Assembly: GCA_964596595.1 (NCBI GenBank)
Contig: CAZQUI010000004.1
Location: forward strand, 1 to 63,165
Direction of reading: 5' to 3'
Origin: an uncultured Candidatus Saccharibacteria bacterium
GTDB lineage: Bacteria; Patescibacteriota; Minisyncoccia; Phycocordibacterales; PALSA-1337
Length of the DNA: 63,165 bases
Shown here: piece by piece, positions 1 through 56,055 of the stretch
How positions within the stretch are numbered: the stretch's first letter is position 1
Layout: each line of letters starts with the position of its first letter
Notes under the pieces: model-generated
Database searches by the model: none
The model's input: only the letters and a program-made list of their open reading frames with translations
What the model was told of the DNA's origin: nothing
Program-made: the position numbers and the translations under genes

Positions 1-83
1 GTCCTCGACCGCACCCTCGTTTTTTCCGCACGTGCCCCGTGGATTTTTCTTTCAAAAATTCCCAAAAAAATCAACAAAGATGC

Positions 84-128
84 GGGCGGGGCGGAAGGGG
101 GGTTTCAGGGGGGAATTCCGCCCCGCCC
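84..128. repeat. GC-rich inverted repeat downstream of tRNA-Ser(ACT)
   Basis: gggcggggcggaa (84-96) is the exact reverse complement of ttccgccccgccc (116-128); the loop carries two G6 runs. Confidence 0.7.
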
Positions 129-186
129 TCCACATTCTGCGATTCTTTCGCCTTTTTCGGACGATTTTGCATTTTGCGCGAAATTG

Positions 187-273
187 CGGAGAGAGTGGGA
201 TTCGAACCCACGGTTCCCGTGAGGGAACGGCGGTTTAGTAAACCGCTGCCTTAAACCACTCAGCCATCTCTCC
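187..273 (-). tRNA. tRNA-Ser, anticodon ACT (unusual A34)
   Basis: Reverse complement folds as GGAGAGA/TCTCTCC acceptor with G73, D loop AGTGGTTTAA, anticodon stem GCGGT/ACCGC with loop TT-ACT-AA (anticodon 237-239), long variable arm GTTCCC/GGGAAC and T arm GTGGG-TTCGAAT-CCCAC; CCA not encoded. Confidence 0.92.
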
Positions 274-363
274 TTTTTCAATTAGTTTAATTAAAACCAA
301 TTGAAACTGAGATCTAAAATCTACCTCATTTTAGATTAAATGCCAAACAAAATATCTCGAACT

Positions 364-783
364 CTACCAAGCTCCAATGATAGCTCCCATAGCAATCATA
401 GAAACAAGACTGCTGAAACATTCAAAAAGCCAAAGCTTTGGAGACTTGCCCATCCAGATAACATCTATAGAAGTAGTAGTCACCATAAAACCAACCCAGA
501 CAATAATTGCAGAAAATATTCCATTCCAAATAGGAGAATAATTTATCAAAGGAGAAGTAGAAAAAATAGCGTAAATAATTGATAAAACCAAAGCTGTGAC
601 TAAATTTACCACTAAATTCCAAAACATCTGTCCGTACATATCAGAAAGTTTTTCTTTTCCAGTAGGGTGAATGTCCGCAAGTTTCATCCATAACTTTCCA
701 GCAACAGGTCCATGCATTAAAAATCCAATGACAAATGCAGCAATCGCGGAAACAATAACAGCTAAAATATTTATTGGAAACAT
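364..783 (-). CDS. DUF1761-family membrane protein
   Basis: 139 aa, four hydrophobic helices, N-terminal 'INILAVIVSAIAAFVIG..W' pattern typical of DUF1761. Confidence 0.7.
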   Translation of the reverse strand: MFPINILAVIVSAIAAFVIGFLMHGPVAGKLWMKLADIHPTGKEKLSDMYGQMFWNLVVNLVTALVLSIIYAIFSTSPLINYSPIWNGIFSAIIVWVGFMVTTTSIDVIWMGKSPKLWLFECFSSLVSMIAMGAIIGAW

Positions 784-841
784 GTATTTTATATATTAAG
801 TATTAAGATAAATAAATAATATCATAAATCTTTTATAAAAA

Positions 842-1066
842 TCAGCGATGCGGACAACCTGCCCAGCAACATGGTCTACGTTTTCCTTCTCCTAATTCAT
901 TTACCGTCCTTTTCATTCTGTGAGTTCGTGTTTCTATTTTCTTAGCTGATTCTATCCAACAAATCCATTCATTACGCGCCAAAGGAGTTATGTCTTCCCA
1001 AGTAATTTTAGCTGCAGTTGATGCAATAATATTTTTTTGTAGATCTGAAGGTGTTTTGTGTAACAT
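842..1066 (-). CDS. YdeI/OmpD-associated (bacteriocin-protection) family small protein
   Basis: WEDITPLARNEWICWIESAKK..TR..R and C-terminal GKRRPCCWAGCPHR motifs. Confidence 0.8.
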   Translation of the reverse strand: MLHKTPSDLQKNIIASTAAKITWEDITPLARNEWICWIESAKKIETRTHRMKRTVNELGEGKRRPCCWAGCPHR

Positions 1067-1195
1067 TTTGTTTTTAAATTTTTATTAAGAGTCAAATTAA
1101 AATTTATTTGGTTTTACTATAAAAATAGTTTATCAGAATTTTTGATAAAAAACGTCAGTTATGACAAAATGCTTTTGAATACCAATATAATATAA

Positions 1196-1285
1196 GGAGA
1201 CGTGGCTGAGTGGTCGAAAGCGGCACCGTGCTAAGGTGTTAAGGGGGCAACCTCTTCATGGGTTCGAATCCCATCGTCTCCGCCA
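1196..1285 (+). tRNA. tRNA-Ser, anticodon GCT
   Basis: GGAGACG/CGTCTCC acceptor, G73 plus encoded CCA, anticodon stem GCACC/GGTGT with loop GT-GCT-AA, long variable arm, T loop TTCGAAT. Confidence 0.95.
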
Positions 1286-2386: not shown

Positions 2387-4678
2387 ATGGCACTAACATT
2401 ATCAACTCTGGTCAATGATCAATTTCGCCTCACACCCCCACAACGAGAAGCCTTAAAAAAATTAGGCATAAAAACAATCGAAGATTTACTTTATCATTTT
2501 CCTACTCGCTACGGAGATACAGCTGAGGCATTAAACATTGAAACTTTAAAAAAAGGTGACACGGCTGTAATTTTTGGAAAAATTAGCAACCTCAAAACTG
2601 CCAAAGGTTTTCATTCAAAAATGACCATGGCCGATGGATATGTCGAAGACGAAACTGGTCGTATACAATGCGTATGGTTCAATCAACCGTATGTTGCCAA
2701 AATGTTTACCGATGGAATGCTCGTGAGAATTGAAGGTAAAGTTTCAGCTAGACAAAAAAAGAAAAACCCTAAGCAGACTACAACTTCTACAGAATCAGCA
2801 ACTCCAGAAACCAATGAACAATCAAATGAAAATGAGCGTCTCTATTTTTCTAATCCTAAAATAGAAATAGTAAACAAATTACCCGTAGGAGTCGGCGATT
2901 CCCTATTTGGTTCTGAAGGAGAAGAACATACTCTCTACCCTATATACCCTGAATCACGCGGAATTAGTTCTGCATGGATATATCATAATATTCAAAAAAT
3001 ATTTAAATCTGGGCTATTAGATGAAATTGTGGATCCTTTACCAGGACACATCTTAGTAAAGTATCATTTACCAAGTCTGAAAACCGCTCTCATTTGGATT
3101 CATACCCCCAAAAAAAGAGATGATGCTTTATCAGCTCGCAAGCGTTTTTCTTTTGAAGAAATTTTTACTATCCAACTAGGTAAACAGCAAGCACGTCGCG
3201 CATACGAAAAAATTCCTACCTTTCGAATCGAAACTAGTGATTCTCATGTTAATGAATTTATTCGTCGTTTCCCTTTTACAGCTACAAAAGCTCAAACAAC
3301 TGCCGTAGAAACAATTCTAAATGATATGCGAGGTAACCGAGCTATGTCTCGACTTTTAGAAGGTGACGTTGGTTCAGGAAAGACAGCTGTGGCTGCAGCT
3401 ACGGCTTATGCTGTAATGACAACGAGACCAGTAATCGTTGATCAAAGCGGCAAAACATTATCTGGAACCGATGGAAGAAGAATTGGAAACCTTCAGATAG
3501 CCTATATGTGTCCCACAGAAATTTTAGCAATTCAACATTTTGAATCATTTATCCAATTTTTCTCTTACATGCCCGTACAGATTGCTCTATTAACAGGATC
3601 AGATTGTCGGAAATTTCCTTCAAAAATAAATCCTAAAAGTTGGACCAGCATATCTCGCAATCAATTATTATCATGGGTAGCTGATGGGCAAATTTCTGTA
3701 GTCATAGGTACACATGCCCTTATTCAAAAATCTGTTTCTTTTAAAAATTTAGCTTACGTAATAATCGACGAACAACATCGTTTTGGCACAAATCAACGAG
3801 GTGAACTCATTAGAAAAAATTCTTTGGGAGGATCTATAGCTCCTCATTTACTCTCAATGACTGCTACACCGATTCCTAGAACATTAACTTTAACTATGTA
3901 CGGAGATCTCGATCTGACACTGCTCGACGAAATACCCACTGGCAGAAAACCAATTATCACAGAACTTGTTCTTCCAAATATACGTGATGAAGTTTATGAA
4001 AAAATTCGTAAAGAAATCCAAGAAGGTAGACAGGTGTATGTTATCTGTCCCCGAATTAATGAACCAGATCCAGAAAAAGAAGCTTCAATGATTGCAAAAT
4101 CAGTAAAAGAAGAAGCTAAGCGTCTCAAACAATCAATTTTTCCAGAATATGAAATTGGTATTCTTCATAGCAAAATGAAACCCAATGAAAAAGACTCCGT
4201 TATGGCAGATTTCAAGTCTGGAAAAATTCATATTTTATGTGCCACTTCCGTAGTAGAAGTAGGTGTAAATGTTCCAAATGCAACAGTAATTATCATTGAG
4301 GGTGCAGAACGTTTTGGTTTATCACAACTCCATCAACTTCGTGGTCGAGTTATGCGTAGTACGCACCAGGCTTATTGCTATATTTTTACTGAAAACAATT
4401 CAGCAAAATCAACCGACAGACTCAAGGCTTTAAAAAACGCCAAGAATGGTTTTGAACTTGCAGAACTAGATCTAGCAGCTCGTGGTGCTGGTGAATTATC
4501 TGGGACCAAACAATGGGGCGTATCTGATGTAGCCATGGAAGCATTACAAAATTTAAAAATGGTTGAGGCTGCCAGAAACGAAGCCGTGAGAATCGTTACT
4601 GAAGATCCTGAACTTTTACGTTATCCAGAGCTTAAAAAAGAAGTAGAAAATAGGACAAGCAAAATTCATTTTGAGTAA
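2387..4678 (+). CDS. recG: ATP-dependent DNA helicase RecG
   Basis: DLLYHFP.RY wedge domain, LLEGDVGSGKT Walker A, IIDEQHRFG, MTATPIPRTL, LHQLRGRV. Confidence 0.97.
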   Translation: MALTLSTLVNDQFRLTPPQREALKKLGIKTIEDLLYHFPTRYGDTAEALNIETLKKGDTAVIFGKISNLKTAKGFHSKMTMADGYVEDETGRIQCVWFNQPYVAKMFTDGMLVRIEGKVSARQKKKNPKQTTTSTESATPETNEQSNENERLYFSNPKIEIVNKLPVGVGDSLFGSEGEEHTLYPIYPESRGISSAWIYHNIQKIFKSGLLDEIVDPLPGHILVKYHLPSLKTALIWIHTPKKRDDALSARKRFSFEEIFTIQLGKQQARRAYEKIPTFRIETSDSHVNEFIRRFPFTATKAQTTAVETILNDMRGNRAMSRLLEGDVGSGKTAVAAATAYAVMTTRPVIVDQSGKTLSGTDGRRIGNLQIAYMCPTEILAIQHFESFIQFFSYMPVQIALLTGSDCRKFPSKINPKSWTSISRNQLLSWVADGQISVVIGTHALIQKSVSFKNLAYVIIDEQHRFGTNQRGELIRKNSLGGSIAPHLLSMTATPIPRTLTLTMYGDLDLTLLDEIPTGRKPIITELVLPNIRDEVYEKIRKEIQEGRQVYVICPRINEPDPEKEASMIAKSVKEEAKRLKQSIFPEYEIGILHSKMKPNEKDSVMADFKSGKIHILCATSVVEVGVNVPNATVIIIEGAERFGLSQLHQLRGRVMRSTHQAYCYIFTENNSAKSTDRLKALKNAKNGFELAELDLAARGAGELSGTKQWGVSDVAMEALQNLKMVEAARNEAVRIVTEDPELLRYPELKKEVENRTSKIHFE

Positions 4679-4716
4679 ACATTCAGCTAGGCTTACCCCT
4701 AGTTATAGCTAACAAG

Positions 4717-4790
4717 TCCGCCCTCTTGGATTCGAACCAAGGACCCCAGAGGTATAAGCTCTGTGCTCTAACCAACTGAGCTAAGGGCGG
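4717..4790 (-). tRNA. tRNA-Ile, anticodon TAT (UAU)
   Basis: Reverse complement: CCGCCCT/AGGGCGG acceptor with A73, D arm GCTCAGTTGGTTAGAGC, anticodon stem CAGAG/CTCTG with loop CT-TAT-AC (4754-4756), T arm CTTGG-TTCGAAT-CCAAG. Confidence 0.93.
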
Positions 4791-4856: not shown

Positions 4857-6782
4857 TTACGCATGCAAAGTCTCGACTTCTGGTTTGTCTATTTTTTGTT
4901 TCGTGGATATACCGTGAGCAATCAATATAGCCTCATATTCTTCTCGTTCGATTGTTTCAGTTTCAATTAAACGCTTGGCGATGGTCTCAAAAACTTTTTT
5001 ATGATCCATCAAGACTTTTTCAGCATGACCACGAGCTTCGGTCATGATACGAGTGACTTCACCGTCTATTTCTGCAGCAACTTTTTCAGAATATTCTTTA
5101 TCATTTACCCCCATACCAAACATAACCTTTCCACCAGCCGCCTCCAAAGCAACTGGACCAATTTTTTCTGACATACCATATTTTGTAACCATATCACGAG
5201 CCAAAGAAGTAGAAACTTGTAAATCATTTGAAGCACCAGTTGTGAAATCATCAAAAATCATACGTTCTGCAACATAACCTCCAAGTGAAACAGCAATATC
5301 ATCTAAAAATTCTTTACGTGATTGTAATTTACGATCTTCAAGTGGAAGTTTTAGTGTATACCCTGCAGCTCTACCTCGCGAAATAATTGAGATCTTATGT
5401 ACAGGATCAGCATATGGTAAAACAGAAGCAACAATAGCATGACCAGCTTCATGGTATGCAGTGATCTCTTTTTCTTTTAGAGAAAGTATATGACTACGAC
5501 GTTCTGGACCAAGCATAACTTTTTCTATGGAACGAATAAGATCGAATTGACCAATTTTTGTTCGATTTTCACGCGCAGCCAATATAGCAGCTTCATTCAT
5601 AAGTGATGCCAAATCAGCTCCAGAAAAACCTGGAGTACGTTCAGCAATTACGCGCAAATCAAAATCTTCAGCTAATTGTTTTTTTGCAGAATGTATTTTT
5701 AGGATATCTTCCCTGTCTCCACGATCTGGTAAATCAATTACAACTCGACGATCAAAACGACCTGGACGCAAAAGGGCCGGATCTAAAACGTCTGGTCTAT
5801 TTGTTGCAGCCATGACAATAACTTTTTCATTTGGCTCAAAGCCATCCATTTCTACTAGTATTTGGTTAAGTGTTTGTTCACGTTCATCATTACCACCACC
5901 CATACCTGAACCTCTAGCTCGACCAACGGCATCTATTTCATCGACAAAGACAATAGCTGGCGCTGCTTCTTTTGCTAATTTAAAAAGATCTCGTACTCTT
6001 GAAGCGCCAACACCTACAAACATTTCAACAAATTCTGAACCAGAAATAGAGAAAAAAGCAACTCCGGCTTCCCCGGCAACAGCTCGAGCCAATAAAGTCT
6101 TGCCTGTACCGGGAGCTCCCATAAGCAAAACTCCTTTTGGAATTTCAGCGCCAATCTCTATAAATTTTTTAGGATTTTTCAAAAAATCAACAATCTCCGA
6201 AAGTTCTTGTTTTGCCTCCTTGGCACCAGCCACATCTTTGAAAGTTACCTTTTGTTTCTGATCATTTGGCATAATAATGCGAGCTTTGGACTGACCAAAA
6301 GACAAAGCTTGAACACCAGCACCTTTTACCTGACGCGATATCATCCAAATAAAAAATATCAAAAATATCAAAGGAACGATAAACGGAGCCAATTGACCAG
6401 TCCAATACCAAAAACCACTTGGTTCTTCTACGGATATAGTTGTAGAAGCTAACCGCACAGAAGAAACATTGAGACGAGACAGCGTTTCTGTAATAGAGAT
6501 ATTTGGTTCTTTTTGCGTATCACGAATAACACCATCACTATAAGTTGCGATTACTTTTTCTCCTCGAATGACCAAAGAATTTACCAAGCCTTTTTGTACA
6601 TCTAAAGCTAATTTTGAAAGTGGAATATTTTCTTTTGAAACTAAGTTTTTAGAAGAAAACTGTCCATATATTGCAGTTATTAGAAAAAACAAAATAAGAA
6701 TAATGATTGATACGTTCAAAAAACTCATTTTAGGAGGCATGGATTTTGATGTTTTATTGCTATTTTGTGGCACACTAGTCAT
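4857..6782 (-). CDS. ftsH: ATP-dependent zinc metalloprotease FtsH
   Basis: Two N-terminal TM helices, [31 protein letters not shown]. Confidence 0.98.
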
Positions 6783-8585: not shown

Positions 8586-8630
8586 CAGCCAACAAAAAAG
8601 GCCAACGGAGCTGGCACTTTTTGTTGGCTG
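8586..8630 (-). terminator. hairpin immediately 3' of tmRNA (probable terminator)
   Basis: cagccaacaaaaa ... tttttgttggctg perfect inverted repeat. Confidence 0.7.
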
Positions 8631-8995
8631 TGGAGATGGCGGGAATCGAACCCGCGTGTAATCGAAACTCACTAAACGATTCTACAGTGGTAGTAGAAAT
8701 TGAAGTTTAATGAATGTGCTCAAAACGTCTACAAAACACACATTCACGATCTCTAAGTTTCGAAATAAATAGTGAGAAGTTATTTATTTCTACATCCGGG
8801 TTATGACATCCGCATCAAGGTATGGATCCCCTTGAACGAACGCGCACTACTTAAGCGAGTGCGAATGCAAAGTCCTTTGCTCCAAAATATGGAGAAACGG
8901 TTGATTTAGCATTTGTGGTTTCCGTCAGATTTACGAGATAACAGTGCTCGCACTGCACGAATAGGAGTCGACGATTATCGAAGCCGATCATCCCC
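8631..8995 (-). ncRNA. ssrA: tmRNA; tag peptide AKSTVSPYFGAKDFAFALA* (8851-8910)
   Basis: 5' GGGGATG pairs with 3' CATCTCC-A including G3:U70; T arm GCGGG-TTCGATT-CCCGC; internal tag ORF ending ALA*; adjacent to smpB. Confidence 0.96.
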
Positions 8996-53258: not shown

Positions 53259-54395
53259 TCATTCCATTGATTCGTTCAACGCTTCAATAGCCGGCAAGGT
53301 TCCTTTAGCGAGAAAATCTAGCATTGCTCCTCCACCCGTAGAAATAAAAGTAAATTTATCTTCCAAACCTAGAGCAGCAATTGCCGCCAATGTATCCCCT
53401 CCACCGACAATCGTCTCGGCTCCAAGTGAGGTCGCTTCACTAATTATTTTAGCTAAAGCCAGAGTTGATTCTTGATAACCATTTTCATACAAACCTAATG
53501 GACCATTCCAGAGAATGAATTTTGATGATAAAACTTTTTCTTTGATCATCTCAATAGTCTTTGGTCCAGAATCCATAATCTTATCTTCTGAAGAAAGATC
53601 GTTAATCAACTTTTTATCTTTTTGTTCATTGGCTATATCTATAGGTAAAATAATTTTGGAATTATTTAGATATGGCGAGAGATCGATGTTGCCTTTTGAG
53701 ACAAGAGAGGAACCGATTCCGTAACCTTTGGCCTTAAAAAAATCGTTAGCCAAAGCTCCACCCACAAAAACATGATCCGCTGTAACTAAAAACTTTTCCA
53801 AAAGTGGTAATTTTGTTTCAAATTTTGCTCCACCAAGAACAAATAAAAACGGATGTGGAGGATTGAAAGCTTTAGATAAATGCGCGATCTCTTTTTCCAA
53901 CTGTGTCCCCGCATACCCAGGAATAAGTTTCGGTACTCCAACCAAAGAAGCATGTTCTCGGTGAGAGACAGAAAAAGCTTCATTTACATATATATCTGCC
54001 AATGAAGCCAGAGCTTTTGCAAATTTTAACTCATTATTTATTTCACTTTCTTCAAAAGAACGAAGATTCTCCAAAAGAAGACACTCTCCATCAGCTAAAT
54101 CTGACTCAACAGTTTCATGAGCATTGCGAATATTTTTAACAAATTTTACTGGCACCCCAAGAGAAACCAGTTTATCTGCCACTGGCTGCAAGGTACCATT
54201 TTGTCCATCGTTAGATTCTAAATGACTAATAAGAATAATCCTTGCTCCACCTTTGCGAAGAAATTCAATTGTGGGTAAAGTTGCTCGAATACGAAAATCC
54301 TCTACTACCACTCCGTTTTTTATTGGTACATTAAAATCAGCTCGGACCAAAACCTTTACTCCTTTTAAATTTTCGATGTCTTTCAAAGTTTTCAT
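53259..54395 (-). CDS. pgk: phosphoglycerate kinase
   Basis: VRADFNVP, LLENLR, YVNEAF..HR.HAS, LGGAK, WNGPLG, GGGDT, STGGGA. Confidence 0.98.
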   Translation of the reverse strand: MKTLKDIENLKGVKVLVRADFNVPIKNGVVVEDFRIRATLPTIEFLRKGGARIILISHLESNDGQNGTLQPVADKLVSLGVPVKFVKNIRNAHETVESDLADGECLLLENLRSFEESEINNELKFAKALASLADIYVNEAFSVSHREHASLVGVPKLIPGYAGTQLEKEIAHLSKAFNPPHPFLFVLGGAKFETKLPLLEKFLVTADHVFVGGALANDFFKAKGYGIGSSLVSKGNIDLSPYLNNSKIILPIDIANEQKDKKLINDLSSEDKIMDSGPKTIEMIKEKVLSSKFILWNGPLGLYENGYQESTLALAKIISEATSLGAETIVGGGDTLAAIAALGLEDKFTFISTGGGAMLDFLAKGTLPAIEALNESME

Positions 54396-54536: not shown

Positions 54537-55172
54537 TTAGGCCTTAGTGCTACTTGCGAAACGGAGAGCCGGGCCGTTGCCGTCCCAATCGCTGCCAGTC
54601 CAGAGCCAGTAGAGGACCACCCTGTCGCCGTACCCATAGAGATACGGAACACTGAGGCTGCCACTGCGGTTCCGCACGATACCAGCCCATCCGAAGACTG
54701 CTTTTCCTTTGAAGTGTTTCCGGAAAAAGGCAATGCCTTTCTTTCGGATCTCTTCCAGGTCGCGCAGTCTGAGGCAGGTCTTGAGCGTATCGGTCTTTTT
54801 AAGATGGTTGTAGATCTTGTTTCCTCCGATACACTTCCCATCTTTCTGACCATCATGAAGCCACTGCTCCACTACCGCAATATCGTACTCGGCAGGTCCG
54901 ACGCTTTCCAATTCCGGATGCATCACTTCTTTCATCCAGTCAGGATACGACGGACGAATGGAGCGATCCACATGGATTTTACCTTCATCATCGACTATTT
55001 CGGTGACTTCGACGAGCTTGGCTTTCCCTGTCCGCAGCAGTGAGACTGCACGGAAGTTTTCGCCAGTGGAGAGATACTCGACATCGTCGTAGGTACCATT
55101 ATTCCGATTGATGGCAAATTGAAGTTTCTGTGCAATTCCAGGTTCGAGTACCACTTTAAGCTTGCTATTCAT
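54537..55172 (-). CDS. GC-rich hypothetical protein inserted between tpiA and pgk
   Basis: 211 aa; strong SD AAAGGAG; aromatic C-terminus VPYLY..GDRVVLYW.W..SDW...PALRFAS, recalled from Parcubacteria hypothetical proteins. Confidence 0.75.
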   Translation of the reverse strand: MNSKLKVVLEPGIAQKLQFAINRNNGTYDDVEYLSTGENFRAVSLLRTGKAKLVEVTEIVDDEGKIHVDRSIRPSYPDWMKEVMHPELESVGPAEYDIAVVEQWLHDGQKDGKCIGGNKIYNHLKKTDTLKTCLRLRDLEEIRKKGIAFFRKHFKGKAVFGWAGIVRNRSGSLSVPYLYGYGDRVVLYWLWTGSDWDGNGPALRFASSTKA

Positions 55173-55293: not shown

Positions 55294-56055
55294 CTACACG
55301 TCAACTGACTTCAAAAGCTCACTAAAACCCTGAATATTTACACTCTGTCTCCCTACCAAAAGACCGTCAACATTGCCTATTTTTATAATATCAGAAGCAT
55401 TTTCTGCATTTACTGAACCACCATATAAAACTTTTACTTTCATAGCCGCATTTTGACCAAAGACATCAGCAAAAGTCTTTCTGACAAAAATTGCCATTTC
55501 ACAGATCTGTTCTGGTTTCATAGCCTCGGTAGCCCCAATAGCCCAAATTGGTTCATAGGCAATGACCACATTTTTGTAATTTTTTAATGAAATTTTTGAT
55601 AGAGAACTGTTTATTTGCTGTTTTATAGTTTCCAAATATTGACCATTTTCATCTCTTACACTTTCACCCACACAAACTATAGCGTTTAATCCAACCTCAA
55701 CTATAGCATTTACTTTTTTGGAAACATCCTCATCACTTTCACCTTGAGCCCGTTCTTCAGAATGACCAACGATCACATATTCAACGCCCAAATCACGTAA
55801 CATATAAACACTAATCTCCCCCGTATGTGCTTCTTCTTCCTTAAAAAGAGAAACCGTCTGAGCGCCCATATAGGCATTTGATGTAGGAGTTCGAGGGGAG
55901 CAATCTGAAATAAATATAAATGGTGGGCAGATTACTACTTCAGTATTAGAAAGTTCCGCTGCTGTTTTACGAGTTTTTTGAGCAATAATTTTTGCTTCAT
56001 CAACTGTCTCCGGATTCATCTTCCAATTACCAACAACCAGTATTTTATTTGACAT
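55294..56055 (-). CDS. tpiA: triosephosphate isomerase
   Basis: GNWKMN, GHSEER, AYEPIWAIG, YGGSV. Confidence 0.98.
   Translation of the reverse strand: MSNKILVVGNWKMNPETVDEAKIIAQKTRKTAAELSNTEVVICPPFIFISDCSPRTPTSNAYMGAQTVSLFKEEEAHTGEISVYMLRDLGVEYVIVGHSEERAQGESDEDVSKKVNAIVEVGLNAIVCVGESVRDENGQYLETIKQQINSSLSKISLKNYKNVVIAYEPIWAIGATEAMKPEQICEMAIFVRKTFADVFGQNAAMKVKVLYGGSVNAENASDIIKIGNVDGLLVGRQSVNIQGFSELLKSVDV

Follow-up and report, generated by a model that had tools for sequence, protein, structure and literature searches.

tRNA-Ser(ACU), a conserved A34 isoacceptor of Patescibacteria and uncultivated phages that probably reads AGU

The standard reader of the serine codons AGU and AGC in bacteria is tRNA-Ser(GCU), a class II tRNA with G73 and a long variable arm. 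The usual bacterial tRNA whose gene encodes adenosine at position 34 (A34) is tRNA-Arg(ACG), in which TadA produces inosine; I34 pairs with U, C and A. There are also A34 tRNAs of four-codon boxes, such as tRNA-Thr(AGU) of Mycoplasma. Leu(AAG) and Thr(AGU) of Lactobacillales are natural and lineage-conserved A34 tRNAs, found in A+T-rich genomes (Raval et al. 2026, bioRxiv 10.64898/2026.05.15.725136). Reviews state that A34 is absent from the Ser/Arg box, and the reason for its absence from two-codon boxes is considered an open puzzle (Ehrlich et al., PMC8007984; bioRxiv 10.64898/2026.05.15.725136). According to Raval et al. 2026, who relied on the 4,047 bacteria in GtRNAdb, tRNA(ANN) of two-codon boxes is universally absent or extremely rare and sporadic; their text makes no mention of CPR or metagenomes.

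ACU tRNAs have been engineered in E. coli, on the M. jannaschii Tyr body or the E. coli Ser body (Schmitt 2024, PMC11066159; Raval 2026). An orthogonal tRNA with the ACU anticodon receives no inosine modification, and editing in E. coli is confined to ANG anticodons; this tRNA reads AGU, reads AGC and AGA not detectably, and reads AGG slightly (PMC11066159). Overexpressed Ser-tRNA(ACU) in E. coli is neutral or beneficial, with growth improved in some media, and Phe-AAA, another two-codon-box tRNA, undergoes A34-to-I34 editing in the same host (bioRxiv 10.64898/2026.05.15.725136), so that exclusion from TadA is no general rule. As to natural Ser(ACU), there is a passing mention of one gene in a horizontally acquired tRNA array of Acidithiobacillus (Tran 2015, PMC4758250); apart from this and the engineered tRNAs, the literature that we searched contains no description of a Ser(ACU) family, though one may exist elsewhere.

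The present study concerns one such gene, close to the beginning of a stretch of 63,165 nucleotides (the window, i.e., the whole stretch of DNA that was analysed). ARAGORN finds four RNA genes in the window, namely Ser(act), Ser(gct), Ile(tat) and tmRNA. The relevant features are:

83-128, minus strand: G+C-rich hairpin GGGCGGGGCGGAA...TTCCGCCCCGCCC, 13 bp, downstream of tRNA-Ser(ACU) (composition, fold)
187-273, minus strand: tRNA-Ser(ACU) gene, class II, G73, no encoded CCA (ARAGORN, Rfam, fold, identical copies in loci L255, L303 and L306)
237-239, minus strand: anticodon ACT, with A34 at plus-strand T239, C35 at G238 and U36 at A237; loop UUACUAA (sequence)
318-346, minus strand: weak promoter-like site TTGGCA-17-TAGATT, about 45 nt upstream of the tRNA-Ser(ACU) 5' end (consensus scan)
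1196-1285, plus strand: partner isoacceptor tRNA-Ser(GCU), CCA encoded (ARAGORN; Rfam, 57 bits)
4716-4790, minus strand: tRNA-Ile(TAT) (ARAGORN; Rfam tRNA model, 69 bits)
8630-8995, minus strand: tmRNA (ARAGORN)

The initial annotation had seen here an intact class II tRNA-Ser with the anticodon ACT and a normal tRNA-Ser(GCT) nearby, and had named ARAGORN as a check; what it had seen is confirmed. ARAGORN places tRNA-Ser(act) at 186-273 of the minus strand, and the Rfam tRNA model scores 56.9 bits at 187-273(-), against the gathering score of 29 and 57.0 bits for the neighbouring Ser(GCT). Read on the minus strand, the gene is a full cloverleaf: GGAGAGA (7-bp acceptor stem with TCTCTCC), TG, GCTG...GGC, A, GCGGT-TTACTAA-ACCGC (5-bp anticodon stem and the 7-nt loop TT-ACT-AA), C, GTTCCC-TCAC-GGGAAC (variable arm with a 6-bp stem, i.e., the long arm of class II), C, GTGGG-TTCGAAT-CCCAC (T arm with a 5-bp stem), TCTCTCC, and finally G, the discriminator G73 at window position 187. 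The predicted fold has an energy of -38.8 kcal/mol (z = -3.9). The gene has the structural marks of a bacterial class II tRNA-Ser, i.e., the cloverleaf, the long variable arm, and G73 together with G1-C72 and G2-C71. The promoter-like site comes from a scan that gave 8 sites in the region of this gene vs 4.2 expected.

With tRNA-Ser(GCU), the gene has in common the class II structure, G73, the long variable arm and the codon box, and it adjoins such a gene in the window and in most CPR loci. The differences are A34 vs G34, the pair G30-C40 vs the C30-G40 of CPR Ser(GCU) tRNAs, and the encoded CCA, which the GCU gene of the window has and the ACU gene lacks. The resemblance to tRNA-Arg(ACG) consists in the gene-encoded A34, in U33-A34-C35 and in A37-A38; Ser(ACU) differs from it by U36 in place of G36, so that the window loop UUACUAA does not match the TadA-substrate loop CUACGAA, and by the split Ser/Arg box, because of which inosine in Ser(ACU) would misread AGA. 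The A34 tRNAs of four-codon boxes in Mycoplasma and Lactobacillales are likewise natural, lineage-conserved and found in A+T-rich genomes; misreading by them is, however, synonymous, and several are inosine-modified, whereas Ser(ACU) belongs to a two-codon box and stands beside a G34 partner. The engineered ACU tRNAs share the anticodon and are unedited, non-toxic with serine and strongly biased to AGU, whereas the natural family has a conserved anticodon stem-loop of its own. The Acidithiobacillus gene is also a natural Ser(ACU), but represents a single mobile-element case, whereas the window gene is chromosomal and syntenic and belongs to a whole radiation.

The two AGY isoacceptors of the window are identical in only 55 of 90 aligned columns, with wholly different anticodon stems, and within one genome the ACT and GCT sequences are 67-79% identical; a recent G34A mutation in the resident Ser(GCU) therefore does not account for Ser(ACT). 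Among the sampled sequences, the identity of Ser tRNAs with other anticodons to any ACT tRNA does not exceed 86%. We also considered origin from either the resident Ser(GCU) or the resident Ser(UGA), and whole-body identities do not discriminate between the two.

To the initial annotation, Ser(ACT) was an oddity of one genome, and a survey of Patescibacteria was suggested. This view has to be abandoned: the gene represents a family conserved in many Patescibacteria, some Planctomycetota and Verrucomicrobiota, and many phages. A pattern that combines a D arm of the serine type with the loop YTACTA, the spacing of class II and a canonical T loop matches at least 119 stretches in GTDB species representatives, and ARAGORN predicts tRNA-Ser(act) for 117 of those listed. 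At least 54 named Patescibacteria genomes have the gene, some of them on contigs of 300-690 kb; the carriers include Magasanik-, Yanofsky-, Kaiser-, Nomura-, Taylor- and Levyibacteria, Paceibacteria, and Parcubacteria RAAC4_OD1_1. Three genomes (L255, L303 and L306) contain a tRNA 100% identical to that of the window and, among the GTDB matches listed, seven further loci are at least 98% identical to it. The neighborhood is conserved as well. Loci L285, L306, L321, L327, L308 and L249 have RecG, tRNA-Ile(TAT) and/or FtsH in common with the window, at 65-79% nucleotide identity, and L285 also shares tmRNA, so that Ser(ACT) is native and syntenic. In relatives, too, the gene has a conserved chromosomal place beside Ser(GCU): Ser(GCT) is found within the 8-kb piece around Ser(ACT) in 30 of the 54 named CPR loci, and in several loci Ser(ACT) stands in tandem with both Ser(GCT) and Ser(TGA).

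Outside Patescibacteria, about 15 MAGs of Phycisphaerales/Planctomycetota with 58-60% GC (L225, L230, L258, L266, L275 and L305 among them) contain one near-identical tRNA-Ser(ACT). In L305 it is located at 4139-4229, inside a chromosomal molybdopterin cluster (MoaA, MoaE, MoeA and MoaC, named from reading the ORFs). In the Phycisphaerales loci, at about 59% GC, AGT is used at 10.4 and AGC at 15.4 per 1000 codons, so that A+T-driven demand for AGU does not account for every case. Two Polynucleobacter isolates (L232 and L233) also have the gene, as do several Verrucomicrobiota and a second Planctomycetota type. In L329, a contig from a MAG with the label Candidatus Ainarchaeum (a DPANN archaeon, 26% GC), ARAGORN gives a tRNA-Ser(ACT) at 5958-6043 with Ser(TGA) nearby, which could be an archaeal or archaeal-virus case.

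The same pattern finds at least 120 stretches in IMG/VR, all of those listed being tRNA-Ser(act) by ARAGORN, and they form 79 clusters at 90% identity. The IMG/VR and metagenome figures given here are samples of the collection parts scanned first, not censuses. When N was allowed at position 34, the 120 IMG/VR stretches listed included 22 Ser(ACT) and 97 Ser(GCT). A pattern independent of the D arm gave 12 Ser(ACT) (18%, 95% CI 10-29%) and 55 Ser(GCT) among 80 stretches listed in IMG/VR, vs 0 Ser(ACT) and 107 Ser(GCT) among 120 stretches listed from bulk metagenome contigs (Fisher p = 5e-6 for the difference in Ser(ACT) share). Phage tRNA loci picked by an unrelated pattern had 10 Ser(GCT) and 0 Ser(ACT), a sample too small to refine the 18%. 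Close matches to representatives of the 79 viral ACT clusters were not found by megablast in 50,697 GenBank phage records. Whole-tRNA BLAST against GenBank phages gave matches that were not anticodon-specific, and the six that were checked were all Ser(TGA) or Ser(GCT); a search for cultured phages with Ser(ACU) by single-query BLAST yielded one weak match, which proved to be GCT.

The presence of Ser(ACT) in phages is associated with codon usage. Phage ORFs contain 19.6 AGT per 1000 codons in Ser(ACT) loci vs 10.7 in Ser(GCT) loci (p = 8e-12), and AGC is equal in the two sets (9.6 and 9.9 per 1000 codons, respectively). AGA is frequent in the Ser(ACT) phage loci, at 15 per 1000 codons. Only 2 of the 120 listed Ser(ACT) phage loci also have Ser(GCT), and their other tRNAs are mostly U34. 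In the other two-codon boxes of these loci there are 298 G34 tRNAs vs 7 with A34.

Two side observations concern the viral collection. Rare split-box A34 tRNAs with other anticodons occur in phage arrays (viral loci L001-L222 and L345-L461), i.e., Asp(ATC), Tyr(ATA), Phe(AAA), His(ATG), Cys(ACA), Ile(AAT) and Asn(ATT), which are about 2-3% as frequent as the corresponding G34 tRNAs. In addition, the Ser(ACT) of L112 (IMG/VR contig 3300000970_000154) is nearly the same as in the CPR-type loci L231 and L334. L112 also has a Ser(GCT), and may be a fragment of a CPR genome, or a CPR prophage, classed as viral.

The family was examined for covariation in an alignment of 76 distinct genome-derived Ser(ACT) sequences, with pairs counted on the cloverleaf. 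Standard pairs are formed in 99.6% of the stem cells. Both partners vary in 16 of the 25 pairs, and the compensatory cells number 371 vs 104 ± 12 in shuffled alignments, none of 500 shuffles reaching 371. In the control, where the 3' partner was slid by 1-3 columns, pairing was only 35-60%. All five variable-arm pairs tested covary, G1-C72 and G2-C71 never vary among the 76 sequences, and the acceptor stem is similar to the acceptor stems of the Ser(GCT) and Ser(TGA) genes that these loci contain. These substitution patterns indicate that the Ser(ACT) family is under selection as a tRNA.

The anticodon arm is even more uniform. All 54 CPR copies have the pairs C28-G42, G30-C40 and U31-A39 and the loop UUACUAA, except for C at position 32 in one of them, and G30 is also found in 112 of the 120 phage Ser(ACT) copies listed. 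The window, with GCGGT-TTACTAA-ACCGC, has the family signature, i.e., the loop YUACUAA on a stem with G30-C40 and U31-A39. One and the same anticodon stem-loop, GCAGCGGTTTACTAAACCGCCG, is common to the window, Planctomycetota and phage clusters, and is unlike the stems of CPR's own Ser(GCU).

The viral distribution, with Ser(ACU) at about 18% of phage Ser(NCU) genes vs 0 of 107 in bulk metagenomes (among the matches listed), the stem-loop that the cellular and phage genes share, and the horizontally acquired Acidithiobacillus array (PMC4758250) could all be taken to mean that Ser(ACU) is phage or mobile-element cargo acquired by cells, with its main role in phage-host conflict, e.g., in escape from nucleases that cut the anticodon loop of tRNA-Ser(GCU). 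We regard this as unlikely, though less so than the other alternatives. In CPR, synteny of the gene extends across species, its neighbours being housekeeping genes and, in tandem, canonical Ser tRNAs; its flanks in the window are devoid of integrase and phage genes; the link of the phage genes to AGU usage is specific and fits decoding; and no Ser(GCU)-specific anticodon nuclease was identified here. Under the decoding interpretation, the phages would carry Ser(ACU) to supply AGU decoding for their AGU-rich genomes; as they can borrow the host GCU tRNA, they would need to carry only the ACU form.

The invariance of the loop UUACUAA and the fixed G30-C40 and U31-A39 could mean recognition by an enzyme, and hence a different, novel modification of A34 that shifts the decoding range. 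CPR genomes are poor in modification enzymes, the same loop is found in phages of many hosts, and unmodified ACU works in E. coli (PMC11066159; bioRxiv 10.64898/2026.05.15.725136), all of which makes this possibility quite improbable.

The reading that we favour, in which A34 stays unmodified, begins with serylation. G73 is the serine discriminator, and SerRS does not read the anticodon, so that a change at position 34 costs no serine identity; for most other split-box amino acids, such a change would cost identity. SerRS would thus charge tRNA-Ser(ACU) through the long variable arm, G73 and the acceptor stem, with the anticodon unread. The unmodified A34 would then form a Watson-Crick pair with the U of AGU, and the neighbouring tRNA-Ser(GCU) would be retained to read AGC, which would explain why cells keep both genes. 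The codon counts in the window are AGT 245, AGC 67, AGA 195 and AGG 43, with AGU making up 79% of AGY. In view of the slight reading of AGG by the orthogonal tRNA in E. coli, some Ser/Arg ambiguity, if slight, at the rare AGG codon is possible. Tolerance of Ser(ACU), as opposed to other split-box A34 tRNAs, would be due to the indifference of SerRS to the anticodon and to the requirement of TadA for G36.

Of the two options in the initial annotation, a dedicated AGU reader with unmodified A34 (TadA being absent or excluding this tRNA) and ambiguity at AGA, the first is favoured and the second disfavoured. In its developed form the second says that A34 becomes inosine, so that the tRNA reads AGU, AGC and AGA, and serine is inserted at AGA arginine codons, either as ambiguity or as incipient reassignment. 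The pairing range of I34 and the editing of Phe-AAA in E. coli speak for it. However, AGA is used at 11 per 1000 window codons and at conserved catalytic and structural arginines, as we see in FtsH (TNR), RecG (TATPIPRT) and L20 (Arg3), and the Ser(ACU) phages use it still more often; its use at conserved arginines had already been remarked in the initial annotation. The ACU anticodon is unedited in E. coli, where only ANG is accepted (PMC11066159). Finally, CPR genomes have been reported to use Arg(GCG) and to be without tRNA-Arg(ACG), and some deep-branching bacteria are without inosine use (Shulgina & Eddy 2021, PMC8629427). Our own set of at least 119 genome loci is in agreement, with three Arg(GCG), four Arg(CCG), two Arg(CCT) and no Arg(ACG). 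The tRNA-Arg(GCG) genes are in the CPR-type loci L234, L245 and L265. As to TadA itself, the window ORFs show no deaminase motif, and tblastn with an approximate E. coli TadA query found nothing in the 63-kb window and the 119 loci (about 0.9 Mb, a part of each genome and thus a weak test). Given the codon usage, the unedited ACU anticodon and the reported lack of Arg(ACG), serine at AGA codons through inosine is very improbable.

We consider it probable, therefore, that the window gene is a functional and chromosomally native serine isoacceptor of a Paceibacteria-type Patescibacterium, charged with serine, with unmodified A34, reading AGU and belonging to an old and shared family. This widespread family includes genes of many CPR lineages, of some Planctomycetota and Verrucomicrobiota, and of a sizeable fraction of uncultivated phages.

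The surroundings of the gene deserve some comment. tRNA-Ile(TAT), with the anticodon UAU, is a second unusual decoder near Ser(ACT), and is found in nine related genome loci, several of them syntenic (L285, L306, L321, L327, L308 and L249). In most bacteria AUA is read by a lysidine-modified CAU tRNA; given the tRNA-Ile(UAU), TilS may be dispensable for the reading of AUA, of which the window has 401 codons, in this lineage. A possible foreign insertion is seen farther away. It is a 211-aa ORF at 54537-55172 (-) with no Pfam family, where the local GC content is about 50%, and it is placed between phosphoglycerate kinase (53259-54395) and triose-phosphate isomerase (55294-56055), both named from reading the translations.

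On the other side of Ser(ACT), which sits 186 nt from the contig end, the flank of 185 nt (1-185) has 55-59% GC vs about 36% in the window. Because a flank of atypical composition at a contig end may indicate a chimera, this possibility was tested. The flank is not repeated elsewhere in the window and, with its hairpin, matches no Rfam family. Nevertheless, window positions 1-131 are 79% identical to positions 89-219 of L264, and L291 has the same sequence after its Ser(ACT); in L264 the stem GGGCGGGGCGGAA/TTCCGCCCCGCCC has one compensatory change, from G-C to A-T. A chimeric contig end and an integrated element were both rejected on these grounds, and the flank could be a conserved structured spacer or terminator-like hairpin, or possibly a small RNA. 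In L264 (89-604) the G+C-rich element is followed by Ser(GCT) in minus and Ser(ACT) in plus orientation; in the window (1-1285) it is followed by Ser(ACT) in minus orientation, the genes for DUF1761 and OmdA, and Ser(GCT) in plus orientation. Thus, the two Ser tRNA genes are exchanged relative to the G+C-rich flank, and the element of L264 is downstream of Ser(GCT), not of Ser(ACT).

An independent assembly is also available. A Logan contig from SRR16481187, reached via the neighbouring DUF1761 protein, corresponds to window positions 186-1242 and has the same ACT. Its sole difference from the window is in the three consecutive bases 219-221, its variable loop being TTCG instead of TCAC, and it ends precisely at the 3' end of tRNA-Ser(ACU) and inside Ser(GCT), an indication of strain variants or of a branching assembly graph at tRNA genes. 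The same anticodon in an independent assembly, together with the identical tRNAs of three genomes, means that the gene is a real sequence and not a chance match. Its place near the contig end, next to a flank of atypical G+C, and the abrupt stop of the Logan contig might suggest an artefact or dead copy (base 239 wrong through assembly or sequencing, a chimera at the contig end, or Ser(GCU) duplicated and decaying). This is hardly credible in the face of this agreement, the conservation of the flank itself in L264 and L291, the strong covariation with no broken stem, and the low match to the neighbouring Ser(GCT). The tRNA-Ser(ACT) of the window is neither an assembly error nor a pseudogene.

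Ser(ACU) is, then, a tRNA isoacceptor that breaks a supposedly universal rule, and it is more telling as a family than as an oddity of a single genome. The broadest interpretation is one to which we incline with reserve: Ser(ACU) would be a natural, ancient and widespread exception to the absence of A34 from two-codon boxes, AGU-specific by virtue of unmodified A34, fixed in large parts of the inosine-lacking Patescibacteria, chromosomal in some Planctomycetota and Verrucomicrobiota, and accounting for about one-sixth of phage tRNA-Ser(AGY) genes; phages may have spread it. For annotation, the consequence is that pipelines may flag such genes as errors. The family also matters for phage tRNA biology, for genetic-code engineering where decoding is to be AGU-specific, and for the modelling of codon usage and tRNA adaptation in CPR and phages. 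With a natural and conserved lineage of Ser(ACU), the puzzle of A34 absence gains a real test case, which opens the questions of why A34 persists in Ser(ACU), how accurate unmodified A34 is in vivo, and whether loss of the inosine system admits A34.
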